Assembly: GCA_947586625.1 (NCBI GenBank)
Contig: CANPXS010000001.1
Span: 4,001-68,000, forward strand
DNA from: an uncultured Clostridia bacterium
GTDB taxonomy: Bacteria > Bacillota > Clostridia > Oscillospirales > CAG-272
Reading direction: 5' to 3'
Length of the DNA: 64,000 nt
Both the position numbers and the translations under genes were made by a program. This document shows, piece after piece, positions 9,340 to 49,735 of this stretch. The notes beneath the pieces were generated by a model that was given only the letters and a program-made list of their open reading frames with translations, made no database searches and had not been told where the DNA came from. Each line of letters begins with the position of its first letter. Position 1 is the stretch's first letter.

Positions 9340-9625
9340 ACAACAGCGACGACGGGGAGGAGTAGGCTTTTGCTCCCGCGCAAAGCGAGCCGGAGACGGT
9401 GAGAGTCCGGCGGCGGAGATGAGTCGAAGGTCGCCCCCGAGCTGCGGATGTGAAAGGATACGGGCACCGTGTGCCGTACTGTGTCCGTCAGCGTCCGCCG
9501 TGTGCGCACGTTACAGCGTCATGAGAGGATAAAGGGTCACACCTTTATCAATTCGGGTGGTACCGCGTATTTATTGCGTCCCGATGCCGTACTCTGTGCG
9601 GCGTCGGACGCTTTTTGTTTTGAAA
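9340..9625 (+). promoter_or_regulatory. T-box leader (tRNA-sensing riboswitch), presumably Val-specific
   Basis: Stem-I type AGCGAGCCGGAGACGGTGAGAGTCCGG and the T-box sequence AATTCGGGTGGTACCGCG (9550-9567). A terminator hairpin at 9576-9611 is followed by TTTTTGTTTT. Tentative GUC specifier at 9430-9432. Confidence 0.88.
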
Positions 9626-25452: not shown

Positions 25453-26856
25453 TTAAAACTCCGCGTTGCCGACCGTTCTCGGGAACGGCTCCGTGTCGCG
25501 TATGTTGCCCATTCCCGTCATATACATGAGCAGTCTGTCAAAGCCGAGACCGTAGCCCGCATGCTTGACGCTGCCGTAACGGCGCAGCTGCATGTACCAG
25601 TCGTAATCCTCGGGACGCAGACCGCATCTCTCGATAGCCGCCGCAAGATAGTCGGCGCGCTCCTCGCGCTGACTGCCTCCTATCATCTCGCCGACGCCGG
25701 GCACGAGCATGTCGCACGCCGCGACAGTCTTGCCGTCATCGTTCAGACGCATGTAGAACGCCTTTATCTCCTTCGGATAATCGGTCACAAACACCGGCTT
25801 GCCGAATATATGCTCGGTCAGGTACCGCTCATGCTCCGTCTGCATATCCATGCCCCAGAACACGGGATACTTGAACTCCGCGCCCGACTTCGAAAGCAAC
25901 TCGACCGCCTCCGTATACGTGACGCGTCCGAAATCGCTCCCGATGAGCGCGCGAAGCTGCTCGAGCTTGCCGGGAGCAACGAATTTATCGAAAAACTCCA
26001 TCTCGGCGGGGCACGTTTTGAGAACGTGGCGGATTATGTGCTTTATCATCGCCTCTGCGAGTTCCATATCGTCCTCGAGGTCAGCGAACGCTATCTCGGG
26101 CTCTATCATCCAGAACTCGGCGGCGTGACGCGTCGTATTCGAATTTTCGGCGCGGAACGTCGGACCGAACGTGTACACATTCGAATACGCCATAGCGAAC
26201 GTCTCGACGTTGAGCTGACCCGAAACGGTCAGATTCGCCGGCTTGCCGAAGAAATCCTTCGTATAATCTATTTTTCCGTCCTCGCCGCGCGGCGGATTCT
26301 CCATGTCGAGCGTCGTGATGCGGAACATCTCGCCGGCGCCCTCGCAGTCGGAGCAAGTCACGATAGGCGTGTGCACGTACACGAATCCGCGCTCATTGAA
26401 GAACGTGTGGATCGCATACGCTGCCTCGCTTCTGACGCGGAACACGGCGTTGAACGTGTTCGTGCGCGGACGCAGATGAGCGACCGAACGCAGATATTCC
26501 ATTGTATGACGCTTGTTCTGAAGCGGATAATCCGGCGTCGACGTTCCCTCGACCGTCACCGACTCGGCGTGTATCTCAAACGGCTGCTTCGCGTCGGGCG
26601 TCATCACGAGCTCGCCGCGCACATGCAGCGCGCAGCCTATGTTCTGATGCGCGATCTCGTCATAGTTGCCGAGCACCGACGACTCGAACACCACCTGTAA
26701 ATTAGTGAAATACGTTCCGTCGTTGAGCTCGATAAATCCGAACGCGTTCGACGCGCGCAGCTTGCGCGCCCATCCCGCGACGTGCAGCTTCTGACCCGCG
26801 TATTTTTCGGGGTCGGAGAATATCTGTTTTACCGTTGTAAGATCTTTTCTTTCCAT
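25453..26856 (-). CDS. asnS: asparagine--tRNA ligase
   Basis: 467 aa with an N-terminal OB fold ([23 protein letters not shown]) and a class II core. It ends in ..[10 protein letters not shown]. Confidence 0.96.
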
Positions 26857-26973: not shown

Positions 26974-29406
26974 TTACAAAGTTTTTGAATTTTCTTGGGA
27001 AACTTTTTCGCCAGCACGCTGTTTTTCACGCCAAAAGTCATCGAGCACACGCATGACGGCGCGCCTGTCGCCCACATATCTCATATTCTGCCAGTGCGAC
27101 GGGAACAATGCCCTATACTGCGCAGTCCCGAATCTGTCGTCCACGAGCAGCACGACGCCGCGGTCGCTCTCGCTTCTTATAACGCGCCCCGCCGCCTGCA
27201 AGACCTTGTTCATGCCGGGGAACACGTACGCGAACTCGAACCCGCGCTCGCATATTCGCTCATAGTAATCGCGCAATAGATTCAGCTCCGTCGAAAGCTG
27301 CGGCATGCCGACGCCGACGACGATGACGCCCGACAGCCTGTCGCCGGGCAGATCGACGCCCTCCGAAAACACGCCTCCGAGCACGCAGAAGCCCACCTTC
27401 GTCACCTTCGGCGACTCCGTGAACTCGTCTATGAACGACTGCCGCTCGCGCTCCGACATGTGCTGCTTCTGCACCACGACCTCGACGCCACTCCTGTCGC
27501 CGAACGCGCCGCGCAAAAGCTCGAGATACGAATACGACGGCAGATAGCAGATGTAATTGCCGACCTTCGCTTTGACGACCGCCTCGATAAGCTCCGCGAT
27601 CTCACCCGCCGTCACAGCCCTGTCCGCCATTCTCGTGCTGATTTTGTCGGCGGCGAGAATGCACAGATTGTCGCGCTCATACGGCGACGGCAGCTCGAGC
27701 GTCTCGCACTCGCCGCACCCGAGCACGCGCGCGAAATAATCCGGCGGCTCGAGCGTCGCCGAGAACATCACGACAGCGCTCGCGCGTCTCATACGCTCGT
27801 CAAGATGCGCCGATGCGTCAAGGCACATGTGCGTGCAAATCACATCTCCGCCCCTCATCTCGACGAAAGCGGTGTGACGCCTGTCAAACATGTCCGCCGA
27901 CACGGCGAAATCTGACAGCATGCGCTTCACCCGCGACAGTATCTTCGCCGCGCGCCTCTCCTCGCCGCTCTCGCCTCCGCGCATCAGAAACGCTTCGCGA
28001 CCGCACATCGCCGACGCTTCCTCCGCCGCTTTCGCGACGGCGGAAAACGGCTCGCCGCCGACGTAGAACCCGCGCATCTCGCCGTCTCCGCCGACAGTCA
28101 CGTCCTCGCACATCGCCGACGCCTTCCCTATCGCGTCCTCGACGAGCGCCAGCGACTCCTTCACATCAGCGTCGCGCGACACGTCCTTCGCCGCCGTCAC
28201 CGCCGACCGCGAAAGCGACGCCGAATACATCTCTCGCGCCCTGTCGACGAGGTTGTGAGCCTCGTCGCACAGAAGCGCGTATTTTTCACTCTTGTGTACG
28301 CTGTCCGCGCCGAAGAATCGGCGCAGGTACACGCGCGGATCGAACACATAGTTGAAATCGCATATTATAATATCGCACATCTCGGCGGCGTCGAGCGACA
28401 GCTCATACGGGCAAACGCGGTGACGCTTCGCGACCTCGACCGTCAGCTCCGGCGTGATGCATTTTCCCGCTCCTACCTCGGCGACGAGCTCCCACACCGC
28501 GTCTGCGGCACGGTCATAGTGACCGCTTGCATATTCGCAGCACTCGGCGCGGCAGTATTCGCCGTCGCCGTGACCGTCCGCGCACATGCGCTCGCGCGCC
28601 AAAACCGTTATCGCGCGCAGATGATCCGTCCTTTTGCACAGCGCCGACGACGCGTCCTCCGCCGCGAGCCTCGTCGACGTCTTAGCCGTGAGGTAGAACA
28701 CCCTGTCGACGAATCCCTCGCCGACTGCCTTGACGGACGGATAGAGCGCCGCCATCGTCTTGCCCGTACCCGTCGGCGCCTGTATCATGACGCGACCGCC
28801 GCGTCTGCACGCGCGCATGACGGCTGTCATGAACTCGGTCTGACCCTCTCTCGCTCCGCCGTACGGAAACCGCAGTTTCTTTATCGCCTGCGGCATCTTC
28901 GACTTTTTTTCGAGCGTGAGATGCGCGAACCGCTCCCACCGCGATATTATCGCCATCGCCTCGGCTTCGAGTTCCTCGCGCGAGAACACGCACTCGAAGC
29001 TGCGCTCTCTGCCTGCCGACTTCGGCACATACGTTATCCTGACGGCGGCGCGCCGCTGACCCGTGCCTCGGCACCACATGAACGCGTACAGCACGCCCTG
29101 CGCGATGTGCGCCTGCGGTATCGCGCCGTTTCCGCCGAAGAACGTGCCGGGCACCGTTTTAAGCTCCTCGACGGTGTCGTATTCCTCGCCCGTATAGATG
29201 AGGTCCGCCCTGCCGTCGATGTGATATTCGATGCCGCCGCTCTCAAACTCGAATGAGAGCGGCACCTCCGCCATTGCGCATCTTCCGTCCTCGACGCGCT
29301 TGTGCGCGAGCACGCCCTCCTCGACCGTAACGCCCGACGCGCGCCCGCCGATGTCCCCGCTCCGCGCGGCTGTATCCACTATTTCGGTAACGGTGACTGA
29401 GATCAT
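26974..29406 (-). CDS. DinG/XPD-family Fe-S DNA helicase with an N-terminal PD-(D/E)XK nuclease domain
   Basis: Helicase motifs APTGTGKT, DEAH (LLCDEAHNL) and QAAGRVIRSESDRG. Four-Cys cluster C-x9-C-x3-CC. N-terminal nuclease-like GRADLIY..VEELKT. The ATG at 29406 was chosen because the ORF extension to 29469 runs into a repeat hairpin. Confidence 0.85.
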   Translation of the reverse strand: MISVTVTEIVDTAARSGDIGGRASGVTVEEGVLAHKRVEDGRCAMAEVPLSFEFESGGIEYHIDGRADLIYTGEEYDTVEELKTVPGTFFGGNGAIPQAHIAQGVLYAFMWCRGTGQRRAAVRITYVPKSAGRERSFECVFSREELEAEAMAIISRWERFAHLTLEKKSKMPQAIKKLRFPYGGAREGQTEFMTAVMRACRRGGRVMIQAPTGTGKTMAALYPSVKAVGEGFVDRVFYLTAKTSTRLAAEDASSALCKRTDHLRAITVLARERMCADGHGDGEYCRAECCEYASGHYDRAADAVWELVAEVGAGKCITPELTVEVAKRHRVCPYELSLDAAEMCDIIICDFNYVFDPRVYLRRFFGADSVHKSEKYALLCDEAHNLVDRAREMYSASLSRSAVTAAKDVSRDADVKESLALVEDAIGKASAMCEDVTVGGDGEMRGFYVGGEPFSAVAKAAEEASAMCGREAFLMRGGESGEERRAAKILSRVKRMLSDFAVSADMFDRRHTAFVEMRGGDVICTHMCLDASAHLDERMRRASAVVMFSATLEPPDYFARVLGCGECETLELPSPYERDNLCILAADKISTRMADRAVTAGEIAELIEAVVKAKVGNYICYLPSYSYLELLRGAFGDRSGVEVVVQKQHMSERERQSFIDEFTESPKVTKVGFCVLGGVFSEGVDLPGDRLSGVIVVGVGMPQLSTELNLLRDYYERICERGFEFAYVFPGMNKVLQAAGRVIRSESDRGVVLLVDDRFGTAQYRALFPSHWQNMRYVGDRRAVMRVLDDFWREKQRAGEKVSQENSKTL

Positions 29407-29423
29407 GGTTTTGTTGGTTTTTT

Positions 29424-29700
29424 GCAGGGAGAGAGAACCTTTTTGAAAAAAGTTTCTCTCTCCCTGCACCCTCTCTTTTCAAAAACTTTTACTACTTTTT
29501 TGTTTTGATAAATCTAACAAAAACAATATCCTCGGAGATAGCTTAAGATAATCACTAATCGGTCCGCTTTTGGAGAAGGTAGCATCTCCTCACTTTGTTC
29601 GGAGCTGCCACACTTTCCGCGTAAGCGGAAAGTGTCGGAGGTTTGGCGCGTAAGCGACGAGATACCCCTCTCATTTTCAAAAACTTTTATTAAATCGATT
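29424..29700 (+). repeat. composite structured intergenic repeat, copy R1 (hairpin H, tail, module C, module B)
   Basis: Hairpin GCAGGGAGAGAGAACC..GTTTCTCTCTCCCTGC (29424-29467). Tail ACCCTCTCTTTTCAAAAACTTTTA. Module C AACAATATCCTCGGAGATAGCTTAAGATAATCACTAATCGGTCCGCTTTTGGAG. Module B includes ACACTTTCCGC-GTAA-GCGGAAAGTGT (29610-29635). Confidence 0.9.
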
Positions 29701-29716
29701 CTCCCACCGACACGCG

Positions 29717-30472
29717 TCAGAACAAGTACAGCGCCTTATTCGGGAAATCAAGAAGTGAAAGCTGCTGCGAAAGTATTTGATATCCGATCACGCCGTCTAC
29801 GTCGCGCCTTTCGCGTATCTGAGAAATATCCGTAAACACCGCGTTCACATTTTTGTATACGCGAGACCCCGCCTTTATCTCGGGGACGACATATACGCCC
29901 GGCGAGTCCGCGAGCGGAGCGGCGTCTATCTTATCCGCAAGCTCGCTTGACAAAAGACACGTATTTGCGCCCGTGTCAAGGACGAATCTGTGCGTCTCGC
30001 CCGAGATCTCAAGCTCCACGACGGGCAGCCCTTCTATATAAAGCGGGAGCTTTTCCGCGCCGCAGGTGCTGATGTCGGGCGCAACCGTAATGACAGAGTG
30101 CTCATAGTCGAGCAGTATCGCCGCGCCTCCGAACGCCTCGATCCCGACGGAGCCGAGAAAGCGTATATCCGGCTCGACCGTCCTGAGCGCGTTTTCCACA
30201 TAATCCATATCCATGCGGATAACGGACAGGTCGTATACTTTGATATTTCCGAAAGCGAACTCATGCAGCGTCGATAGCACAGCGCCGTTGACCGCCATCC
30301 CTTCATTAAACAGCGCGACCTCTTTATTCTCGCCTAAAAGCTCGGGAAAATACTTGCCGTTCAGCGACGTCTGCATCGCTCCCGTGTCAAAAGCGAAGTA
30401 CCCCTCGACATCGCCGGCATCAGCCTTTATAAGTATTATCCCCAAAATATTTTTGAACTCTATTTTCTCCAT
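29717..30472 (-). CDS. fused-dimer retropepsin-like aspartyl protease, cytoplasmic
   Basis: 251 aa from MEKIEF (RBS GGGGGA). It has two halves, each with its own catalytic motif (FAFDTGAMQTSL and FVLDTGANTCLL) and a downstream G..G...L element. No signal peptide. Confidence 0.8.
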   Translation of the reverse strand: MEKIEFKNILGIILIKADAGDVEGYFAFDTGAMQTSLNGKYFPELLGENKEVALFNEGMAVNGAVLSTLHEFAFGNIKVYDLSVIRMDMDYVENALRTVEPDIRFLGSVGIEAFGGAAILLDYEHSVITVAPDISTCGAEKLPLYIEGLPVVELEISGETHRFVLDTGANTCLLSSELADKIDAAPLADSPGVYVVPEIKAGSRVYKNVNAVFTDISQIRERRDVDGVIGYQILSQQLSLLDFPNKALYLF

Positions 30473-30531
30473 GACTGTTTCCCCCGATAAGCAGCGCATG
30501 TTCTATGCGCTTTTTTCATTATTCCCCGCCG

Positions 30532-32784
30532 CTACAGCTTCTTCTCCGCAAATCTCGCCTTTATCTCATCGGTGCGCAACCGCTCCGTCATATACGCGCG
30601 GCGCAACAGCTCCGACGGAACGTAATCGTCGTACTTATCAAACGCCGGCGTCTCGTTGTCGCCGACGAGGTCGGCGACGTCGACGCCCGCCTCAAAGTCG
30701 GCGGCTATATTTCCGAGCAGCTCCTTCGCCGTCGTCTTCTCCATCTTGAACGAGATGAAGTAGCAACCCTCGTACTCGATGCCCGACAGCCCGAACCGCT
30801 TCGCATTCTTCGACAGATACCGCCGCAGCGTGCGGAACGATTTCGTCCCGAGCCACGGGAACATGCAGTACGTGAGTCCCCCGAGCGACACGAGCGGCGA
30901 GGACAGCATACCCGTGTTCCTCGCGACGCGGCGCGCGAGGTCGAGCCGCTTTGACGCGCCCGGCTTGAGATACGGATACTCCGTATCTTCCGCGAGCACG
31001 CGGTACATGCGCTCGAGTATGCGCGTGTGTATCTCGCCGAGTTCGCCCGGCCACGATATCTCCATCTTGCCCCCGACCGACTTGACGTATATCAGCTTGC
31101 GCGCAAGGTCGAGCTCCTCGACTTCCCAAACGCGTCCCGCGAGCGCGAATCTGTCGCCGACGGGCGGCGCCTCCGATATCGTGCCGATCTCGTCCGACTC
31201 ACAGCGGACCGTGTAATCCTCCGCATCCTTGAACACGGCGTAAAACTTGAATCCCGACGTCAGCCGTTCGCCCTTCATGCCGACGATCAGACCGCCCTCG
31301 TCGGTCAGCTCTAAAAAATCGTTTTTCACCATCGAGACGAGCAGCGTCCTGAAATCTTCCCTCTCGACAGCCTCGAACGGCGGCAGCGACAATATCCTGT
31401 CTGCGAGCCGCTTCGGCGACAGCTCGCCCGACGCGACGAGCGTCGACAGCGTCTGCTGAAAAAGGAGCGAGAACGGCATTTTCCTCGTCAGCGGCGGCTC
31501 TATGAACCGCTCCTCTATATAAAGCTGTATTATCGCTATCGCGCGCAAAAGCTCCCACGGCATCATCTGCGGCAGCGGCGTGTCCGGCACGGGCGCGTCC
31601 TCGCGGAACACCATCATCATTTCGGGCGGCTCTCCGCGCCGCCCCGACCTGCCGAGTCTTTGCAGAAACGACGACACCGAAATCGGCGACCCTATCTGCA
31701 CGATGCGCTCAAGCCTGCCTATATCTATGCCGAGCTCCATCGTGACAGTCGCACACGCCACCATGCGCTCCTCGTCGCTTTTGAGAAGCGTCTCCGCCTC
31801 CTCGCGTATCGACGCGGACAGATTGCCGTGATGTATCAGGAAAATATCGGGTTCGCGGCGATTCTCCGCGATCTGACGCAGCGTAGCGCACACATACTCC
31901 GTCTCCTCGCGCGAATTTGAAAACACGAGCGCGCGCCGCCCCTTCACGCAGTCGTACACATATTCATATCCGGGGTCGATCTCGCTCGGCATCTCGTCGG
32001 GCTCGAGCCCGAGATCGCCCTGCGACGGCGTTTTACGTATCTCATGCGTACCGACGTGCAGCGTCTCCTCGTCGGCGAGGTAAAAATGCTCGAGTCCGAG
32101 CCGCCACCGCAGCGGCACAGGCTTCACCTCCGGCACATCGCACACGCGCGTGTCGCCGCCCGACAGCCACTTAGCCGCGACCTCGACGTCGCCGACTGTC
32201 GCCGACAGTCCTATCCTGCGCGGACGGTGTCCGATCGCGCGCGAGATGCGTTCGAGCTGGCATATGACCTGATTGCCGCGGTCCGTGTTCGTCATCGTGT
32301 GTATCTCGTCGATTATGACGTAGCGCAGATCGGAAAATATGCGCGGTATGTCGTTCGGTCTGTTCATCAGCATAGACTCGAGCGACTCTGGCGTTATTTG
32401 CAGTATGCCCGCCGGCGACCGCAAAAGCTTCGCCTTGTGCGACTGCGCGACGTCGCCGTGCCAGTGATAGACGGGGATCCCCGTCGCGTCGAGCAGCTCG
32501 TCGACGCGCAGAAACTGATCGTTTATCAGACTCTTGAGCGGCGCGACGTATATCGCCCCGACGCTCTTCGGCGGGTCGGAGTAAAACTCCGACAAAATGG
32601 GGAACAGCGCCGCCTCCGTCTTGCCCGACGCCGTCGCCGACGTGATGAGCAGATTGTTGTCCGTGCAGAGTATAGTCTCCGCCGCCGCCAACTGTATCTC
32701 ATGCAGCCGCTCCCACCCGTGCGAATATATGTATTCCTGTATGAACGGCGAAAACCGCTCCATCACCTCTTCGGCTGATCTCAT
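30532..32784 (-). CDS. sngC: Lhr-like SF2 DExH helicase (Shango SngC-like)
   Basis: Motifs SATASGKTEAA, YVAPLKSLINDQ, VIIDEIHTM, GLSATVGD, ELGIDIG and QRLGRSGRRGE. ATG at 32784; the TTG-start extension to 32856 translates a repeat hairpin. Confidence 0.85.
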   Translation of the reverse strand: MRSAEEVMERFSPFIQEYIYSHGWERLHEIQLAAAETILCTDNNLLITSATASGKTEAALFPILSEFYSDPPKSVGAIYVAPLKSLINDQFLRVDELLDATGIPVYHWHGDVAQSHKAKLLRSPAGILQITPESLESMLMNRPNDIPRIFSDLRYVIIDEIHTMTNTDRGNQVICQLERISRAIGHRPRRIGLSATVGDVEVAAKWLSGGDTRVCDVPEVKPVPLRWRLGLEHFYLADEETLHVGTHEIRKTPSQGDLGLEPDEMPSEIDPGYEYVYDCVKGRRALVFSNSREETEYVCATLRQIAENRREPDIFLIHHGNLSASIREEAETLLKSDEERMVACATVTMELGIDIGRLERIVQIGSPISVSSFLQRLGRSGRRGEPPEMMMVFREDAPVPDTPLPQMMPWELLRAIAIIQLYIEERFIEPPLTRKMPFSLLFQQTLSTLVASGELSPKRLADRILSLPPFEAVEREDFRTLLVSMVKNDFLELTDEGGLIVGMKGERLTSGFKFYAVFKDAEDYTVRCESDEIGTISEAPPVGDRFALAGRVWEVEELDLARKLIYVKSVGGKMEISWPGELGEIHTRILERMYRVLAEDTEYPYLKPGASKRLDLARRVARNTGMLSSPLVSLGGLTYCMFPWLGTKSFRTLRRYLSKNAKRFGLSGIEYEGCYFISFKMEKTTAKELLGNIAADFEAGVDVADLVGDNETPAFDKYDDYVPSELLRRAYMTERLRTDEIKARFAEKKL

Positions 32785-32798
32785 GGTTTGATTTATAT

Positions 32799-33280
32799 CC
32801 GGAGGGAAAGGGACTTTTTGAAAAGTCCCTCTCCCTCCGGACCTCCCTCTCTTCAAAAACTTTTATTATATTTTTTATTTTGGCAAAGTAAACGGAAACA
32901 ATATCTTCGGAGATAGCTTAAGATATGCACTAATCGGTCCGCTTTTGTGCGAGGAGCATCTCCTCACTTCGTTCGGAGCTGCCACACTTTCCGCAAAGCG
33001 GAAAGTGTCGGAGGTTTGGAGCGTAAGCGACAAAACTCCCAACTTTCTACAAAAAGGTTCCTCGCAAATGAAAGAAGTCCCTCTCCCATTAATCACTATA
33101 TTTCAAAAACTTTTATTTCTTTTCTATTTTTACAAATCTGACGAAAACAATATCTTCAGGGCGGACTTAAGATAATCACTAATCGGTCCGCTTTTGGAGA
33201 AGGTAGGGGACACCTTTTACAAAAAGGGGTCCCCGAAACAAAAAAGTTTCCCCCATCTTATATCCCAAAAACTTATCACC
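32799..33280 (+). repeat. composite structured intergenic repeat, copy R2 (two tandem units)
   Basis: Hairpin CCGGAGGGAAAGGGAC..GTCCCTCTCCCTCCGG (32799-32840). It is followed by the tail, module C and module B (hairpin 32984-33008), then a second hairpin, tail, module C and hairpin. Same orientation as R1. Confidence 0.9.
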
Positions 33281-34708
33281 TTATATCACGATATCGTTCG
33301 GGTCAAAATCTGCACGTGCCGGCCTCGTCTCTGCCGCACCGACCGACTCGCCATCGCCCTTATCCTCATCGATCGCACTGTCGCCGCCCTCGTCGCTGAC
33401 GCCTCCCTCGTCGCCGTCTCCGACCGGCGTGAGCTTGACAGCGTCGCCGAGGATATCGGCAAATTCCGCCTCGGGATTCTGATAAAGGATATTGAGCACC
33501 GATATATAATCGCGTATTATCTCACGCGGCGTAATCATGATATTCGCGCCCGCCGTCTCGAGACAGACGCGGACGAACGTCTCGGGGTCGCCCTCCGACA
33601 CGCGCGGCTGCCAGTTATAGTAAAGCGCATGCAGCGCCGTCACGCGCAGGACGAGCGCCAACAGCTCGTTATCCGACAGCCTGCGCAGCCTTATGACGGG
33701 GCCGAGCATATTGCGGTACTCGCCGCTGTCGAACCTGCCGTCTGCGAGTCTGCCGCGCAGCGCCTCATAGCTGAAAAGTCCGCGACGTCTGTCCTCCAAA
33801 AACTGCGGCGTGCCGCCGAACACGAGCATCAGATGCTCCGCCCTGCCCTCGAGCGTGTCGTTATACATGGACAGTATCTTTTCGTAGTTGTTTTCGCGGC
33901 TCGTGCGATTCGGTATCTTATATAGGTTGACGCACTCGTCGATGAACACGACGAGTCCCGAATATCCTATCCCTGCGGCGAGGCGCGAGATCAGCTTGAT
34001 ATACTCGTACCAGTTGTCGTCGCCGACGATGCCGCCGACGCGCAGCGCCGCCTTCGCCTCCGTCTTGGTGTTGTACTCGCCGCGCAGATACCGCATGCAC
34101 GCGCTTTTCGACTCCTCGTCGCCGCTTTCGCACGCGTCGAAATATCTCGACAGCACGAGCGCGAAGTCAAAGCCGCCGACGCCGCCCTCTAACTCGCGCA
34201 CCGTGTCGAAAATCCTTGCGCGCACGGTCTTGTCAAACTCATCGCTGCCGACCGCAAAGCCGTCCGCCGCGACTCTCGACTTTATATCCGATATCCACTT
34301 AGCCAAAATCTGCGGCAGCGCGCCGCCGTCCGGCGACGACTTCGTCGCAAGATTGCGCACAAGCTCGCGGTACGTCGCAACGCCAGCGCCAGACGACCCG
34401 CACAGCCTGCGTTCTATCGAGAGGTCGCAGTCTGCGGTGACGAATCCCCTTTCGAGTGCGTAGCCGCGCAAAAGCTGTATCAGAAAACTCTTACCCGAGC
34501 CGTAGCGCCCGATGAGGAATCTCATCGCGCCCTCGCCCTCGGCGACGCGCTTCATATCGTCCGTCATCGCCGCGATCTCATCCGTCCTGCCTATCGCGAT
34601 ATAGGGCGCGCCCGCGCGCGGCACGACTCCCGCCGACAGCGAATTCATCAGCTGCGACAGTATTCGCCTCGGCACCCTCTCCGCGGACTGTGTATTTATA
34701 TAGGGCAT
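33281..34708 (-). CDS. sngB: DUF2791-type P-loop ATPase (Shango SngB-like)
   Basis: 475 aa with Walker A GRYGSGKS, Walker B GLVVFIDE and an acidic C-terminal tail. It lies between the TerB-like and helicase genes. Confidence 0.8.
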   Translation of the reverse strand: MPYINTQSAERVPRRILSQLMNSLSAGVVPRAGAPYIAIGRTDEIAAMTDDMKRVAEGEGAMRFLIGRYGSGKSFLIQLLRGYALERGFVTADCDLSIERRLCGSSGAGVATYRELVRNLATKSSPDGGALPQILAKWISDIKSRVAADGFAVGSDEFDKTVRARIFDTVRELEGGVGGFDFALVLSRYFDACESGDEESKSACMRYLRGEYNTKTEAKAALRVGGIVGDDNWYEYIKLISRLAAGIGYSGLVVFIDECVNLYKIPNRTSRENNYEKILSMYNDTLEGRAEHLMLVFGGTPQFLEDRRRGLFSYEALRGRLADGRFDSGEYRNMLGPVIRLRRLSDNELLALVLRVTALHALYYNWQPRVSEGDPETFVRVCLETAGANIMITPREIIRDYISVLNILYQNPEAEFADILGDAVKLTPVGDGDEGGVSDEGGDSAIDEDKGDGESVGAAETRPARADFDPNDIVI

Positions 34709-34714
34709 ATGGTT

Positions 34715-35015
34715 TATTCCCGGGGGAAAAACTTTTTATAAGAAAGTTGGCGTTTCCTTCGTAAACGCACGAGTTTTCTTCAAAAACTCTGTCCCCCCGA
34801 ACCCCCTTTTCAAAAACTTTTATTGACAATTTTTAATTATTGGTCAGGTAAAATTTAGTGCGGCTCCGAGCGCAGCGGCGAGCCGCCGATCGCTTTTGGG
34901 GAGGGGTGCGGGGAACACCTTTTCTTGGAAAAGGGGTTATCCGCCTTGTCCAAAAAAGTTTTCCCTCCGGACCTCCCTTTCAAAAACTTTTCCTGACTTT
35001 TTTATCTTACTATGA
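34715..35015 (+). repeat. composite structured intergenic repeat, copy R3 (diverged)
   Basis: It contains the tail motif TTCAAAAACT three times, G-rich/C-rich hairpins, and CCCTCCGGACCTCCCTTTCAAAAACTTTT shared with R2. Module C is degenerate (GCCGATCGCTTTTGG). Confidence 0.75.
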
Positions 35016-35020
35016 CTTTT

Positions 35021-36859
35021 TTACTCTAAATCCTGTCTGTAATCTTCAACGACTGCGTAGCCCCCGTCGCCGCCGGCTTCGAGCACGATATCGCCGATCT
35101 CGTCCGTTTCGGTCGCCGCATCGTTTATGCGCGCCGCGACCTCGTCCGCATAAATGCCGCGTTCGCGGCAATACTCGCCCTGCGCGTCAACACCCGCACC
35201 CGCAAGCACGAGACGCAGGAATCCCGCAGCGTCCCCGTCGAGCCGCGAATAAAGCCCGCCGCCGCTTACATCATCGCTTATTTCCGCCTTCGCGACTTCG
35301 ACCGCGTTCTCAACCGCATCTTCCACCGCATCCGCAACCGCAGTTGTATCCGTATCGTCGGCTTCAGCTTCCGTCTCCGTCAAAAGCTCCGTCGACGCCC
35401 ACGACGCACGCTCTATCTCCGCCGCGCTCTCCGCGTCCATGCCCACCGACAGCGCCTCGTACATGCTCCCGTCGTAGTCGCCGCCGAAAACGATGTCGTC
35501 GCTATTCTCGCCGTCCGCGCGCGTCGACTTCTTCGTTCTGTAAAACTGCGTCGGGAACTCGCGCGCAAAGTACTCGTCGACGAGCGACGCCAAATCGGGC
35601 GCAAGCTCGCCCACGCGCAGACGCGCCTTTATCCCGAGGCAAGACCGCAGCTTATTCTCCGCATATTTGACAAGCTCCGTTGCCGTCGACCGCAGTTCCC
35701 GCGACCGCACATACGACAGATACTCGATGTCGATGCGGCACTTGACGTTGTGCGCGCAAAGCGACCCGCAGAACGCGTCCCGCGAAACGACCGCCTCCCT
35801 CATCGACCCGCGCGATAACATATCGCCCCGCCGCTCAATGACATATCCGACGGCACCCGGCATATGGCGCTTGTATTCGTCCGCAGTTTTCTCTTCGAGC
35901 GCAAATTTGCTCTTCTGCCAATGGTAATCGGACGAAAGATCCATCCACGACCCGGCGCCGATGCTGCCGCCGTCGCCGGACATATAGAACTCCTTCAGCG
36001 TCGCCGCTTCGAGCACGGCGGGCAGAATGGGCGCAAGCTGCTCGAGCGGCGCTTGCAGACGGTTGATGAGACAGTAATCCGCCACCCATTCCGACAGGTA
36101 CTTGTCGAGCACCTTGTCCTTTTCCCTGTACGCGAGCCACACCGCGCACAAACTGCGCACGCCGTCCTCGGGCGCGATGACGCCGCGCAGATTAATTATC
36201 TCATACACATACAAAAGCACGTACGAGAACGACGCCGGCAGCCAAACTCCCGCCCTCGCGTTCTCGCGCCACCAAAGATAGTACGACAGCTGCGCCTTCG
36301 ACATCTGCCTGTACTGCGGCGTATACGAGAAGAAATCGACTTTTTCGCACTCGTGACCCTTCACATCCGCGTACCGCTTCGCGTCAAAGCGGAACTGCTC
36401 GTAAAAGCTGTACCGTGACGGCCACTGCATGACGCGCACACGCTTGATGAGGCCGTGCTCGGGCTCGTATTCGAGTATCGGCTCCGCCGTCGTACGCGAT
36501 GTGCGCGAGACGCTCTCGCGTCTCGGCAGGCGTAGCCTGTCCGCGTCCGTGTCCGTGTCATTATCAATATCTATATCAATACCGCCGCCGCCGCCAGACG
36601 ACCCGGTCATATTTACATTTATGTTTATATTTCTGTCTATGTTTACATTCGCGTTTATATTCACATTCGCGCCCGTGACCTCGCGGAACCGCGCCGACAG
36701 ACTGCCTCGCCCCCGCTGCGTCTCCGTCCTTGACGCTTCCGGCGCACCGAACTCTATTTCCACCGTCTCGACGTCGCGCTCGCGCCTTTGCACCGGCGGA
36801 CGCTTTTTCGGCACGAGAGAGGACAGATCCCAGAAGTCGTCCTTGTTCGTTTCAGCCAT
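35021..36859 (-). CDS. sngA: TerB-N/TerB-C domain protein (Shango SngA-like)
   Basis: 612 aa from MAETNKDDFWD (RBS GAAAGGAGAG). TerB-N-like core FFSYTPQYRQMSKAQLSYYLWWRENARAG. TerB-C-like tail ..ADEVAARINDAATETDEIGDIVLE..YAVVEDY. The ORF extension to 37108 lies in repeats. Confidence 0.8.
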   Translation of the reverse strand: MAETNKDDFWDLSSLVPKKRPPVQRRERDVETVEIEFGAPEASRTETQRGRGSLSARFREVTGANVNINANVNIDRNININVNMTGSSGGGGGIDIDIDNDTDTDADRLRLPRRESVSRTSRTTAEPILEYEPEHGLIKRVRVMQWPSRYSFYEQFRFDAKRYADVKGHECEKVDFFSYTPQYRQMSKAQLSYYLWWRENARAGVWLPASFSYVLLYVYEIINLRGVIAPEDGVRSLCAVWLAYREKDKVLDKYLSEWVADYCLINRLQAPLEQLAPILPAVLEAATLKEFYMSGDGGSIGAGSWMDLSSDYHWQKSKFALEEKTADEYKRHMPGAVGYVIERRGDMLSRGSMREAVVSRDAFCGSLCAHNVKCRIDIEYLSYVRSRELRSTATELVKYAENKLRSCLGIKARLRVGELAPDLASLVDEYFAREFPTQFYRTKKSTRADGENSDDIVFGGDYDGSMYEALSVGMDAESAAEIERASWASTELLTETEAEADDTDTTAVADAVEDAVENAVEVAKAEISDDVSGGGLYSRLDGDAAGFLRLVLAGAGVDAQGEYCRERGIYADEVAARINDAATETDEIGDIVLEAGGDGGYAVVEDYRQDLE

Positions 36860-36908
36860 GATCCGCACTCTCCTTTCGGCATAAAAAACATTTGTTCTAT
36901 ATCGTATT

Positions 36909-36937
36909 ATTATACCACAAAATTGCGATTTTGTCAA
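36909..36937 (-). promoter_or_regulatory. consensus extended -10 promoter of the Shango-like operon
   Basis: On the minus strand: TTGACA (36937-36932), 17-bp spacer ending in TGG, TATAAT (36914-36909). It lies about 50 nt upstream of the sngA-like ATG. Confidence 0.75.
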
Positions 36938-37019
36938 TCCGTTCGCAACGTTTTTTTGACGCTGCCGCCAAAAAAATAAGCGGGAGATGTGGTGCGAAAG
37001 AAAAATTGTAAGTGTATAT

Positions 37020-37542
37020 TTTGAAACGAGAGAAACTTTTTTCATTTGCGAGGAACCTTTTTGTAGAAAGTTGGGAGTTTTGTCGCTTACGCTCCAAACC
37101 TCCGACACTTTCCGCTTTGCGAAAATGTGTGTGTAACGTCTTCTCGTTACACTCGAAGCCGTCCTGCACTTTCCGCTTCGCGGAAAGTGTGGCAGCTCCG
37201 AGCAAAGCGAGGAGATGCTCCTCGCACAAAAGCGGACCGATTAGTGCATATCTTAAGCTATCTCCAAAATTATTGTTTCCGTTTACTTTGAAAAAACTTG
37301 TCATAAAAATTCTTGAAATATAGGTGTTAATGGGAGAGAAACTTTTTTCAGTTGCGAGGAACCTTTTTGTAAAAGTTTCCTCCCGCTCCTCCAAAAGCGG
37401 ACCGATTAGTGATTATCTTAAGCTATCTCCGAGGATATTGTTTCCGGTTGCTTTTTCAAAAGAAAAAATTGTAATAAAAGTTCTTGAAAAGAGAGGGTGC
37501 AGGGAGAGAAAAACTTCTTTCAAGAAGTTTTTCTCTCCCTGC
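37020..37542 (-). repeat. composite structured intergenic repeat, copy R4 (two units, inverted relative to R1-R3)
   Basis: Reverse complement of the R2/R1 module order. The long unit 37028-37290 has a 61-nt internal hairpin duplication. The short unit ends in hairpin 37499-37542, which abuts the csaB stop codon (37553). Confidence 0.9.
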
Positions 37543-37552
37543 AATAAACACC

Positions 37553-38647
37553 CTACTTACTCTCCACCATTCTGCGCAGCTCGTAAAGACCTCCCATAGC
37601 GCGCTGCGACATCTGCGCCGCCATCGACAACGCCAGCGAGGCGAAATGCTCGCGTCTCGCCGTCACCTCGTCGACGAAGCGGCACAGCGACACCGAGTCC
37701 GACATCTCATCCATACCGGCGCATACGCTGTCCGTCATGCGGCAGAACGACGTTATCTTCGGGTCGCAGCCGACGCCGACGGACGGCGTCCCCATCGCGC
37801 ACGCGAATATAAGCGTGTGCAGTCTCATGCCGAGCGCGAACTCGGCGCCGCTCATGACGCGCTTCGCGTCCGCGATGCTGAAGCTGCCGTCCCACACGCG
37901 CGCACATCGGCACATCCGCGCTATGCGCAACGACAGTGCGAGATCCTCGTCGCGCTGCATCGGCACGAGCAGCGGCACGATGCCGTGCTCGCGTATACGA
38001 ACGCATACGTCCGCGAATACGCGCGGCAGCGTCATCATCGCGCCCCTGTGCGGACGAGGCGATACGACCGCATACCGCTCGCCCGCGCCGATCCCTGCGG
38101 AGCTTGCGTCTCTGCCGCCCGTATCGTCAATGCCGCCGAGCAGAAACGCCGTGTCGGCGGCGACCGCGACATGCATGTCCGAGACGTTGAGCCCCATCTT
38201 CTGCAAAAGCGCATACGACTCGCTGTCGCGCAGCGTTATCCTGTCTATGTACTTCAAAACCGAGGCCGTTCGCCTTCGGCTCGAATCGCGCATCAGCGGA
38301 CCTATACCGTTAGACAGCAGCATCGTCTTCATGCCGCGCATCTCCGCCTCGTAGAGGAGCCATAAATAATAATAGAGCGAACGGCAGCTCGTCACATCCT
38401 GCAAAAGACTGCCTCCGCCGAATACGAACGACGTCCCCGCGTTCATTTCGCCTATGACGTCGACGAGCGAATACCTATGTACGGCGCGTACGCCGTACAT
38501 GCGCTCCGTCTCGCTCGGGCGCATAGACAAAACGGTGACGGTCTTGCCCGGCATCATTTTTCTTATTTCGTCAAGAACTATCGCCAACAGCGCCTCGTCG
38601 CCGCTGTTGCCGAAGCCGAAATATCCCGCGAGAACGATGTCGGACAA
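37553..38647 (-). CDS. csaB: polysaccharide pyruvyl transferase CsaB
   Basis: N-terminus MSDIVLAGYFGFGNSGDEALLAIVLDEI. 364 aa. Confidence 0.88.
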   Translation of the reverse strand: MSDIVLAGYFGFGNSGDEALLAIVLDEIRKMMPGKTVTVLSMRPSETERMYGVRAVHRYSLVDVIGEMNAGTSFVFGGGSLLQDVTSCRSLYYYLWLLYEAEMRGMKTMLLSNGIGPLMRDSSRRRTASVLKYIDRITLRDSESYALLQKMGLNVSDMHVAVAADTAFLLGGIDDTGGRDASSAGIGAGERYAVVSPRPHRGAMMTLPRVFADVCVRIREHGIVPLLVPMQRDEDLALSLRIARMCRCARVWDGSFSIADAKRVMSGAEFALGMRLHTLIFACAMGTPSVGVGCDPKITSFCRMTDSVCAGMDEMSDSVSLCRFVDEVTARREHFASLALSMAAQMSQRAMGGLYELRRMVESK

Positions 38648-38664
38648 CCCGTCACCCCCTTTTT

Positions 38665-40704
38665 TCAGTTTTCGCTTTCGAACTCTACGGAAAAATATTT
38701 ATTCAGTATACGTGTAAAAACTATATTCAGCGCGTAAACGACCGCCGATGTGAAAATGCCGAGCAAAAGACCGTTCGCGAGCCGCCCGAACTGTATCCCC
38801 GCATTCGTGAACACATGGCAGAACGTGTTCGTCACGGACGCGGGCAGTATAGCCGCGCCGACGGCGAGTCCCCACGGCAAAAGCGTCCCGTGCCACTTTT
38901 TCGCGTACCACACGAGCAAAACGAGACACGGATACGCGGCGACGAACTCCTTCGTGCGCGGACGCGCCGCCATATGCTCGGTGATGAATTCTCTCATCGA
39001 TTCCTCCGCCGACGATATCGATGATACGTTTCCGCTCCTGACGATATATATGACGCTCACCGCCATCATTATGACGGCTGCCGCCGCCCACGACATCCTT
39101 ATCCGTGCCGACATCACGTCTCTGACGTCGCCCGGGAACGAGCCCTTTTTATGTATGAACATCACGTAATACGCGGCGGCGGCGTAGAGAAGCGGCGCGT
39201 ACAGCGATATTTTTATGCCGCGGAATATGTCGTTGTTGAAATAATAGTCGATGCCGGACAAAAGCGAGCACATAACGACGCCGCCGACGGCGAGCACTGC
39301 GAGCACCGGCACGGCGACAGCCGCCGTAAGCGGCAGTACGCCGAGCCTGCCGCGCAGCTTTTTGAGCGCGTACAGCATGACGGACACCGCAAAGCACGAT
39401 ATAGCCAGCGCCGCGCACGTCGGATACAGCAGCACGAGCGGCTCCGGCATTACGAACGTGACCGCGAACGACGCGACCGCAAGCAGAACCGCAGCGATGA
39501 ACGCTTTCATACCGTCGAGCTCGAACACGGCAGCGACGGCTCCGACCGCGATCACCGCAACGAACGCTGCGGCGATGTTCGGCGTCAGCGCGTACCTCTC
39601 GTATCCGTCAAGACGCGTATCACATTCTTTCACGTCATAGCCGAGCGACGACAGCTTTTCTATCGCCGACCCCGCCGCCTTTGACGTGTCGGACGCGAGC
39701 GTCTCCGCCGACTTTCCGCCGAGCGAAAGCTGCGTCACGCTTACAAAGCGCGAATTTCTGTCTATCACGGAGTTGAGGTACTGGTTGCGCCTGAACATGT
39801 ACCCCGTCGAATCGGGCGACGACTGGTCGTAGGTTTCAAACGCGCGCAGGACGCGCCCGTCCGCCGCGTCGAATATTTTGTCGTAACCGATTATGTCCTC
39901 GTTTGAAAGCTGCGTCGCGTTCTCCGCCGCGACGAAATAAAGTCCCCGCGACGCGATGAGCTCCGCCATCCTGTCGATGTTTTTGTCTGCGTTCTCGTCC
40001 GTTTCTTTGCTTCTGCTGTCATTGCGCAGCCACAGATACTTGACACCGTTTTCGTCTACTATCCTTTCAAGCTCGTCTATATAGCCGACGCTGCTCCTCG
40101 ACCCCATGCGCAGCGAAACAGCAACGTCGAACCCGCGCGCCCTCATTTCCGCTATCGCCGCCTCGTCAAATCCGAGCGGGATGTCGTACGTCGGAATATT
40201 GCCGTCGAATATCACAAAAACACTGCTGCCGCCTACATCGCCGACGTCCGCGTACTCATCGGGCGAAAACGACAGCGGCAGACAGCGGCGCACTCTTTCC
40301 GCGTCGTCCTGGTCGGACGCGATTATTACATGTGAGGCATACGAAATATTTTCGACTTTGCCGAGAGCCTCCGCCAAGATGCGCGACTCCTCGTCGTACT
40401 TGTGCCTTATGTCGTGATAACGTGCGCCGACTATGTCGCCTCTGTCGACGAGCACGTTCATCGTCAGCTCCGGCACCGTCACCGTCGTGACGCCCGCCGC
40501 CTTTATCTCGTCGAGATGATGCTCCAGCGACTGCTCGCCGAGTCTGTTTTTCGCGTCCGAGTACAGAAGCGAGAACACGACGCTGTCGTTTTCCCTCTCC
40601 GCCGATACTCGCGCGAAAAACTGCGGCAGAAGCGCGCATGCAAGAAAAAGCGCAAGTACCGATATCGGCAGAAGCGCCGCCGTGCGCCGTTTATCTTTCA
40701 TCAT
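38665..40704 (-). CDS. large polytopic membrane protein (DUF5693-like), csaB-associated
   Basis: 679 aa: signal/anchor, an ~350-aa soluble domain, then about 9 hydrophobic helices. The family name is from memory only. Confidence 0.7.
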   Translation of the reverse strand: MMKDKRRTAALLPISVLALFLACALLPQFFARVSAERENDSVVFSLLYSDAKNRLGEQSLEHHLDEIKAAGVTTVTVPELTMNVLVDRGDIVGARYHDIRHKYDEESRILAEALGKVENISYASHVIIASDQDDAERVRRCLPLSFSPDEYADVGDVGGSSVFVIFDGNIPTYDIPLGFDEAAIAEMRARGFDVAVSLRMGSRSSVGYIDELERIVDENGVKYLWLRNDSRSKETDENADKNIDRMAELIASRGLYFVAAENATQLSNEDIIGYDKIFDAADGRVLRAFETYDQSSPDSTGYMFRRNQYLNSVIDRNSRFVSVTQLSLGGKSAETLASDTSKAAGSAIEKLSSLGYDVKECDTRLDGYERYALTPNIAAAFVAVIAVGAVAAVFELDGMKAFIAAVLLAVASFAVTFVMPEPLVLLYPTCAALAISCFAVSVMLYALKKLRGRLGVLPLTAAVAVPVLAVLAVGGVVMCSLLSGIDYYFNNDIFRGIKISLYAPLLYAAAAYYVMFIHKKGSFPGDVRDVMSARIRMSWAAAAVIMMAVSVIYIVRSGNVSSISSAEESMREFITEHMAARPRTKEFVAAYPCLVLLVWYAKKWHGTLLPWGLAVGAAILPASVTNTFCHVFTNAGIQFGRLANGLLLGIFTSAVVYALNIVFTRILNKYFSVEFESEN

Positions 40705-45652: not shown

Positions 45653-45670
45653 ATTCGAAGGGTTTTAATA

Positions 45671-45744
45671 TCGGAGTGACTGGATTCGAACCAGCGGCCT
45701 CTTGGTCCCGAACCAAGCGCTCTACCGGACTGAGCCACACCCCG
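45671..45744 (-). tRNA. tRNA-Pro (anticodon CGG)
   Basis: The reverse complement CGGGGTGTGGCTCAGTCCGGTAGAGCGCTTGGTTCGGGACCAAGAGGCCGCTGGTTCGAATCCAGTCACTCCGA folds as a cloverleaf. The anticodon loop is TTCGGGA and the T-loop is GGTTCGAATCC. Confidence 0.95.
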
Positions 45745-45774
45745 ATATACGGTCGCTTCCGCGACAGCCTAAAC

Positions 45775-49639: not shown

Positions 49640-49735
49640 GTTTCGTGGGGGAGAGGAGAACTCTTATAAGAGTTCCCCTCTCCCCCACACCCCCACACCC
49701 TTCAGAATTTTTTATGACTTTTTTCTATTAAAGGT
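49640..49735 (+). repeat. hairpin-plus-tail repeat module inside the mrp operon
   Basis: GGGGGAGAGGAGAACTCTTATAAGAGTTCCCCTCTCCCCC followed by ..CCCTTCAGAATTTTTTATGACTTTTTT. This matches the hairpin/tail design of R1-R4. Confidence 0.75.

Follow-up and report, generated by a model that had tools for sequence, protein, structure and literature searches.

The window analysed here is a stretch of 64,000 nucleotides (nt) from an uncultured Clostridia bacterium (GenBank assembly GCA_947586625.1, contig CANPXS010000001.1, positions 4,001 to 68,000 of the forward strand). Its minus strand holds, at 29717-36859, four intact co-directional open reading frames (ORFs) in the order sngA-sngB-sngC-protease. 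The first three are the genes of a Shango anti-phage system and the fourth encodes a putative aspartic protease. The sngA gene (35021-36859, minus strand) codes for a TerB_N-domain protein of 612 amino acids (aa), and sngB (33281-34708, minus strand) codes for a 475-aa BrxD-like P-loop ATPase (PF10923, formerly DUF2791); both were assigned with Pfam and PADLOC. The sngC gene (30532-32781, minus strand) codes for a 749-aa SF2 DExH helicase of the SngC/BrxHI clade, assigned with PADLOC and the DEAD and Helicase_C domains. Its frame is open up to a TTG codon at 32856, which would give a 774-aa ORF, and relatives favour the ATG start that gives 749 aa. The protease gene (29717-30472, minus strand) codes for a 251-aa cytoplasmic protein, predicted from its Asp_protease_2 match, an AlphaFold2 (AF2) model and Foldseek to be a two-lobed (fused-dimer) clan-AA aspartic protease.

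A candidate sigma-70-type consensus promoter with an extended TG stands 5' of sngA on the minus strand (36909-36937, TTGACA-17-TATAAT, 12/12). It is the sole 12/12 promoter match across 8.4 kilobases (kb; 29300-37700). The spacer between sngC and the protease gene (30473-30531, minus strand) is 59 nt long and holds a hairpin of 7-8 base pairs (bp) seen in the sequence and its predicted fold. An initial annotation of this DNA had reported the coordinates, sizes, motifs and spacing of the four genes and the perfect promoter accurately, including the distance of 59 nt between the helicase stop and the protease gene. It read the locus as a four-gene Shango variant in which the protease is a candidate effector or activation step.

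Identity of the Shango triad

Shango is a three-gene system that consists of a TerB-like protein, an ATPase and a DEAD/DEAH helicase (PMC10250203; bioRxiv 10.1101/2022.05.11.491447; bioRxiv 10.1101/2025.09.30.679545). Its protection is modest, about 10-100-fold, and its mechanism is not established (PMC10250203; bioRxiv 10.1101/2022.05.11.491447; bioRxiv 10.1101/2025.09.30.679545). Protection against phage has been demonstrated with the E. coli and P. aeruginosa systems alone (PMC10250203; bioRxiv 10.1101/2022.05.11.491447). SngC is grouped with BrxHI, DruE and DpdJ in one defence-specific SF2 helicase clade (PMC12278908).

In the window all three PADLOC Shango models match over nearly their full length, and the earlier assignment of the triad to SngA, SngB and SngC is borne out. 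SngA matches the PADLOC SngA model with an E-value of 7.5e-44, residues 116-612 aligning to model positions 63-524 of 528. Pfam finds TerB_N in it (3.8e-20, 73 bits, cutoff 25) and no TerB_C match even at E <= 10. Hence the TerB-N-like core that had been described for this protein is confirmed, but the TerB-C-like tail is not. SngB matches the PADLOC SngB model at 2.7e-160, far above BrxD (1.4e-51). Its Pfam match to BrxC_BrxD (PF10923, 1.8e-152) agrees with the DUF2791 type proposed earlier, and the translation contains the GSGKS Walker A and FIDE motifs. SngC matches the PADLOC SngC model at 1.9e-239, residues 32-766 of the 774-aa ORF aligning to model positions 6-714 of 720. Pfam recognizes DEAD (1.7e-29) and Helicase_C (9.9e-15), and the motifs GKT, DEIH, SAT and QRLGRSGRRG are invariant across 26 homologues. 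The initial annotation was right about the DExH helicase of about 750 aa and its motifs but not about the Lhr type; WH_Lhr scores 23.3 bits, under its cutoff of 27, and the top-scoring models are SngC and BrxHI rather than Lhr. Taken over the locus, the hidden Markov model (HMM) and PADLOC searches return the expected triad domains except TerB_C and an Lhr match above its cutoff, and Asp_protease_2 for the protease.

The three genes are adjacent and co-directional in the window, and the order A-B-C is identical in most of 80 related loci. Judged by profile matches and gene order, the triad is a canonical three-gene Shango system, and the locus is a further Clostridia member of an already known system. 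SngA, the TerB_N protein and fastest-diverging partner, is probably the infection sensor or specificity provider, while phage nucleic acid is the probable substrate of SngB (a BrxD-like ATPase) and SngC (a BrxHI/Lhr-like DExH translocase).

A separate observation concerns the composition of SngA. Residues about 70-160 (36380-36650) contain (N-I/V)n and (D-I/T)n runs of low complexity that correspond to short tandem repeats of 12 nt in the gene. This low-complexity region falls outside the PADLOC SngA model match.

The protease and its distribution

The protease carries two catalytic motifs, D29-T-G-A and D166-T-G-A, which hardly vary or do not vary at all among 49 aligned homologues. Pfam recognizes only the C-terminal half, as Asp_protease_2 (1.3e-12). 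BLASTP between the two halves finds no similarity, and the duplication is visible only by profile-profile comparison. In such a comparison (hhalign) the profile of the N-terminal half aligns to that of the C-terminal half over 100 columns with an E-value of 2.9e-4, in a register where the DTGA motifs, the G-x-x-G motifs and the terminal LLDY/LLDF strands coincide. The AF2 model has a predicted local distance difference test (pLDDT) score of 90.6 and a predicted template modelling (pTM) score of 0.86. In Foldseek its best match is 9iy9, a putative endopeptidase of Bacteroides fragilis (E-value 9e-12, template modelling (TM) score 0.67), followed by plasmepsins, chymosin, pepsin and renin at about 1e-10, with TM scores of 0.6-0.68 and a probability of 1.00. 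The protein has no signal peptide, and the model opens with a beta strand at residue 2. The two DTGA motifs, the half-versus-half profile match and the predicted fold agree with the earlier description of two retropepsin-like halves. They support a single-chain, two-lobed clan-AA aspartic protease, modelled with a pepsin-like bilobal fold and pseudo-symmetry.

This two-lobed architecture is widespread, since an exhaustive profile search finds 1031 clusters at 50% identity with E <= 1e-10. Family members are about 250 aa long, or about 300-425 aa with N-terminal extensions. In the sources searched the subfamily of about 250 aa has no name beyond 'aspartyl protease family protein', and no relative was found in the viral contigs searched. 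These cytoplasmic single-chain proteases of about 250 aa are an uncharacterised family that is common in gut Clostridia.

The association of protease and Shango was surveyed from both sides. Loci fetched for comparison carry L numbers. On the Shango side, a 26-homologue SngC alignment provided 80 SngC loci from species-representative genomes, all of them Clostridia metagenome-assembled genomes (MAGs), with at most 10 kb of flank. A protease HMM of about 120 homologues was applied at a threshold of E <= 1e-3, and as a positive control it matched 92/92 protease loci. Within 10 kb of SngC it matched in 0/80 loci. The initial annotation had set the protease apart from canonical three-gene Shango, and it was right to do so, as published Shango has three genes and none of the 80 loci carries the protease.

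A conserved fourth Shango gene of any other kind is likewise rejected, because what follows sngC in the 80 loci is a mixed set of housekeeping-type genes. They include AddB, UvrA, 2-keto-3-deoxygalactonokinase (DGOK), an aminotransferase, DegV and a TIM-barrel isomerase, and some of them overlap the sngC stop codon. Some related operons (L031, L076, L027 and L034) also hold inserts of unrelated genes, 1.5-2 kb long, between sngB and sngC. In L031 the insert encodes a secreted, membrane-anchored protein of 335 aa (L031:8685-9692), and in L076 a membrane protein and a 279-aa protein without identification (L076:8006-9927). The protease fits this pattern of heterogeneous passengers around Shango.

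Some of the post-sngC genes, in more distant Shango loci, encode DNA-repair proteins and overlap or directly follow the sngC stop codon: AddB in L035, L040, L042, L044, L046 and L070, and UvrA in L082. In L086 the post-sngC gene, judged by its size only, would match as well. The presence of DNA-repair genes and of a DinG-like neighbour near Shango may be chance or a loose association.

On the protease side, the survey comprises 92 loci including L012, which leaves 91 independent ones; 80 are metagenome loci that together span 857 kb, 39 of them being 10 kb or longer. Clade-specific HMMs for SngA, SngB and SngC match in none of the 80 metagenome protease loci, and Shango accompanies 0/91 independent protease loci. 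Homologues that are 71-74% identical to the window protease stand after ftsZ in the dcw cluster (L001-L003), beside a restriction-modification/AAA_15 cluster (L008-L010) and near nrdD (L011). Those that are 53-58% identical stand beside a helix-turn-helix (HTH) gene or an MGMT-type gene. Over the protease loci surveyed, the immediate neighbours form about 50 distinct cluster patterns. The composition of the gene also differs from that of its surroundings: its GC content is 52.6% and its GC content at third codon positions (GC3) is 64.7%, against a GC3 of 73-80% in the seven surrounding genes.

The closest relatives show the same site in the absence of the protease. In the window the protease gene is followed by a DinG/XPD-like helicase gene (26974-29406, minus strand; 810 aa, Helicase_C_2 and DEAD_2) and by the gene of asparaginyl-tRNA synthetase (AsnRS, asnS, 25453-26856). 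In L013 (SngC 97% identical) and L014-L016 (86%), SngA-SngB-SngC is followed directly by the DinG-like helicase and AsnRS. DNA homology between the window and L013 ends at 30533, at the sngC stop codon, and resumes at 29575; the corresponding interval of L013 consists of about 400 nt of repeats. The open-frame gap between sngC and the DinG-like gene is 4-49 nt in L014, L016 and L021, and in the DNA comparison with L014 about 140 nt remain outside the alignment. The protease is present at this site in one other locus only, L012, a 3-kb contig that is 95.7% identical to the window and hence of the same lineage. The tight junctions of the outgroups argue for a gain in the window lineage rather than repeated loss. 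An ancestral protease at the junction of sngC and the DinG-like gene, lost repeatedly in relatives, would allow the repeats in the L013 spacer to be read as a deletion scar, but it needs independent losses in L013, L014-L016 and L018-L021, several of which have a clean junction of 4-140 nt. The protease GC3 is moreover atypical for the block and the closest protease homologues lie elsewhere in related genomes, so that we regard this history as very unlikely.

The reading that we prefer, with a probability of roughly 85%, is that the locus is a canonical three-gene Shango system and that the protease is a passenger gene inserted next to sngC in the window lineage. A stand-alone protease gene would have entered the intergenic region that separates sngC from the DinG-like gene. 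Read-through from sngC may occur, yet the gene would be neither a functional nor an evolutionary component of Shango.

Several observations weigh against this reading, and they bear on three alternatives. The 59-nt spacer between sngC and the protease gene contains neither a promoter-like site nor a sense-strand intrinsic terminator. Its hairpin was considered as a terminator and rejected, as it has no sense-strand U-tract and the spacer folds no better than shuffled sequence (z -0.39); the sole terminator-like call in the spacer is on the opposite strand (30493-30511, plus strand). A canonical GGGGG Shine-Dalgarno sequence precedes the protease ATG. Since the spacer is without promoter and sense terminator, the protease is probably co-transcribed with sngC in the window strain, as would be expected of a newly recruited accessory gene. 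The arrangement is also kept in L012, and an inverted repeat pair, described below, brackets the protease together with Shango. In addition, defence-type genes stand at 2/6 contexts of close protease homologues (L008-L010; L004), and the PADLOC candidate PDC-M08B matches the protease weakly (5.2e-06 over about 40 residues).

Co-direction, close spacing without promoter or sense-strand terminator, the two intact DTGA motifs and the retention in L012 are what would speak for the four-gene variant of the initial annotation. However, the survey for co-occurrence that the annotation had proposed finds the protease in none of the 80 related loci, including the syntenic sister lineages L013-L016 with identical downstream genes, and the reverse survey finds no Shango at the 91 independent protease loci. 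The protease belongs to a widespread, stand-alone family and differs in GC3 from its neighbours. The four-gene variant is without evidence, because the triad is standard Shango and the protease is an unrelated insertion found in this lineage only; we consider a role as effector or activation step very unlikely, and a real functional link of any kind between protease and Shango very improbable. Tight adjacency and co-direction are no proof of membership in a system, and here the comparative loci refute it.

A less direct link would be that the protease is a very recent, strain-specific recruit of Shango, read through from sngC, that modulates the system, perhaps through the processing of SngA or an action on a phage protein. 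In a weaker form, the 'mini-pepsin' family would be an unrecognised cargo of variable, defence-rich regions. We regard this as quite unlikely. If the recruit reading were true, a defence system would have been caught while acquiring a new module.

The defence-type genes point to a third alternative, in which the protease gene belongs to variable, defence-island-like regions as an independent accessory, perhaps with a stand-alone role in defence or counter-defence, and came to lie beside Shango through the mutual attraction of such regions. Close homologues do occupy differing sites in related genomes. L008-L010 hold a restriction-modification methylase/specificity cluster, an AAA_15 ATPase, a Peptidase_S8 and AAA pair and RelB beside the protease homologues, and in L004 the homologue stands near a Peptidase_U49 (Lit-like) gene. 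Most neighbours are nevertheless housekeeping or miscellaneous by Pfam (the dcw/ftsZ cluster, nrdD, the MGMT-type gene), and a reading of representative neighbours suggests a metal ATP-binding cassette (ABC) permease, a major facilitator superfamily (MFS) transporter, an amidohydrolase and an RNA methylase. The PDC-M08B match is confined to a short segment of the protein, and no viral copies were found. A full-text literature search found no paper that joins a retropepsin with anti-phage defence, and TerB and Shango, but no aspartic protease, are mentioned in a preprint of 2025 about modularity in defence (bioRxiv 10.1101/2025.09.30.679545). This alternative is therefore unlikely, and the passenger reading is retained.

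Junction repeats, flanking genes and evolution of the block

The initial annotation had described the other gene junctions as 310-500 bp long and filled with structured repeats. They measure 312 nt between sngA and sngB (34709-35020, minus strand) and 499 nt between sngB and sngC (32782-33280, minus strand), and the repeats have now been mapped. The sngB-sngC junction holds modular dispersed repeats, and the sngA-sngB junction holds two degenerate copies of the same module. Two more intervals on the minus strand are filled with repeats. One is the region 5' of the sngA promoter (36938-37552), which includes a terminator-like hairpin at 37543-37498. The other is the spacer between the protease gene and the DinG-like gene (29407-29716), which has a hairpin leader at 29422-29469, 17 nt 5' of the DinG-like ATG; its DinG-proximal part is common to the window and L013. 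One modular repeat family occupies all four spacers (29417-29700, 32797-33250, 34776-35003 and 37028-37549), and further copies of the intergenic repeats lie at 46.27-46.69 kb, near tRNA-Pro(CGG). The GC content of the spacers is 40-44%, against 57% for the whole window.

Of 172 fetched loci, only those of the closest relatives (L011-L014, L016 and L017) contain the repeats. The junctions in related operons range mostly from an overlap to about +30 nt, and for sngA-sngB mostly from a 22-nt overlap to +30 nt. The sngB-sngC junction of relatives is 2-120 nt long and retains only the hairpin module. Because the repeats are confined to the closest relatives and the junctions of relatives are short, the long junctions are best described as lineage-specific insertions. 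On this comparison of loci, they represent a repeat expansion in the window lineage and not a property of Shango. They would have arisen as modular repeats (purine tract, hairpin, A-rich spacer) expanded in and around the operon. The spacer between sngC and the DinG-like gene in L013 (L013:12250-12650) is filled with short tandem or dispersed repeats, with about three units of ~50 nt (GTGTGCGATATCTCGCCGCTGCCGCG...) and a run of GGGAGAAACTTTT-like units.

The core module consists of AAAAGTT(T/C)TTGAA(A/G)AGAGAGGG, a near-perfect hairpin of about 22 bp, 12-20 A-rich nt and an ATG. Its purine-rich tract is GAAAAGAGAGGG. Copies of the hairpin module stand in the window at 32797-32842, 29422-29469, 37496-37545 and 49644-49689, and in relatives at L013:9939-9984, L014:9935-9986, L016:2796-2840 and L017:1616-1665. 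The module is placed directly 5' of sngC in the window, L013, L014, L016 and L017; in the window this copy (32797-32842) stands 13 nt 5' of the sngC ATG. It is also found 5' of the DinG-like gene in the window, L012 and L013, and 5' of an oxidoreductase-like ORF in L011. After the pyruvyl-transferase gene it is reversed and terminator-like. Across 11 hairpin copies, 88.8% of cells are paired and 11/22 pairs are changed on both sides. Slid registers are 50-67% paired, and 0/500 shuffles reach the observed pairing, a control that overstates the significance because the 11 copies are themselves related.

Between the stem and the start codon there is no Shine-Dalgarno sequence. As a speculation, formation of the stem could turn the purine tract on its 5' side into a split ribosome-binding site; the module could also be an RNA processing or stability element or, when reversed, a terminator. 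The sngB-sngC repeats contain a promoter-like site (TTTACT-16-TATAAT, 32892-32865), so that the triad may not depend on a single upstream promoter. At gathering thresholds Rfam finds only a T-box and a tRNA in the whole window, and a permissive scan of 29.3-37.7 kb gives only sub-threshold matches to generic hairpins of microRNA (miRNA) type on palindromes. As neither scan yields a specific match, the junction repeats belong to no described RNA family. A covarying hairpin leader or repeat module before sngC and other genes is of possible specialist interest.

The locus is flanked by housekeeping-type genes on both sides, as had been reported. AsnRS and the DinG-like helicase lie on one side, and a polysaccharide pyruvyl transferase (37553-38647) and a DUF5693 membrane protein (38665-40704) lie on the other. 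Elsewhere in the window, Rfam places the T-box leader at 9340-9586 on the plus strand (119.8 bits) and tRNA-Pro(CGG) at 45670-45745 on the minus strand.

The DinG-like gene adjoins the triad in 8/9 of the closest loci (L013-L016 and L018-L021; SngC 74-97% identical), though not always on one side or in one orientation; the remaining locus, L017, is a 3.6-kb fragment that breaks off within sngC. The helicase evolves faster than AsnRS (67% vs 94% identity to L013). All rad3/YoaA/DinG models score under their cutoffs for this protein, and its N-terminus gives a weak PD-(D/E)XK signal (PDDEXK_1, E-value 0.0024). The protein was considered as a defence gene because of a strong PADLOC typeIV_DinG match. 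This match is not taken as evidence for defence, since the protein also matches the generic rad3/YoaA/DinG models, and no type IV CRISPR-Cas model matches the other locus proteins scanned. The adjacency of the DinG-like gene and Shango could be either mere synteny or a functional link.

Across L013-L019 the SngC/AsnRS identity to the window is 97/94, 86/88-90 and 80/81%. SngC identity thus tracks AsnRS identity, which suggests that in this clade of gut Clostridia Shango is vertically inherited and chromosomally fixed, with the DinG-like gene and asnS as neighbours. Rabbit-gut MAGs are the nearest relatives. Over the same loci SngB is 92, 77-79 and 66-72% identical to the window, and SngA is 58, 51-55 and 43-47% identical, the fastest-evolving gene of the block. 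These values suggest that SngA is the component under diversifying pressure, either as the specificity or sensor part or through exchange by recombination. Its fast divergence is consistent with a specificity or sensor role and could guide mechanistic work on Shango.

In L018 and L019 the DinG-like/asnS pair stands on the opposite side of the triad and is divergent from sngA, which indicates at least one inversion of the Shango cassette with respect to the adjoining genes. The window carries an inverted repeat pair with 87-89% identity between its arms (29417-29578 and 37386-37549), which could mediate inversion of the cassette by recombination.

Comparison with known systems

The known Shango systems (Millman et al. 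2022; Johnson et al. 2023) share with the window the three proteins, their order and the intact catalytic motifs. They differ in their host, a proteobacterium, whereas the host here is a lineage of gut Clostridia. The window system sits beside the DinG-like gene and asnS, apparently by vertical inheritance and not as part of a mobile island. Its junctions are expanded by repeats, and its SngA has no TerB_C match.

The Bacteriophage Exclusion (BREX) systems contain a similar ATPase-plus-helicase module, in which BrxD corresponds to SngB (PADLOC 1.4e-51, NCBIfam 9.9e-51) and BrxHI to SngC (1.2e-122). The Shango models score far higher, and the NCBIfam BrxD model gives SngB 173 bits, under its cutoff of 350. 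PglX, PglZ, BrxA, BrxB and BrxC have no PADLOC match among the seven locus proteins scanned (26974-40704). Membership in BREX is rejected, as only the BrxD and BrxHI models match and both are outscored by the Shango models.

The protease has two structural counterparts. Like 9iy9 and the pepsin-like A1 enzymes, it is predicted to be a single chain of two retropepsin-like lobes with a DTG in each, and its family profile matches both lobes of 9iy9. It is shorter, with 251 aa against 420 aa in 9iy9 and about 325 in pepsins, and has no signal peptide or N-terminal extension. Its identity to these enzymes is 11-17%, and Pfam sees only its C-terminal lobe. The single-domain retropepsin-like proteins (Ddi1 RVP, Asp_protease_2) resemble that lobe, which matches Asp_protease_2 and the Ddi1 structures 4z2z and 2i1a (about 7e-4). 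The Ddi1-type proteins are homodimers of one lobe, whereas the two lobes of the window protease are fused and have diverged.

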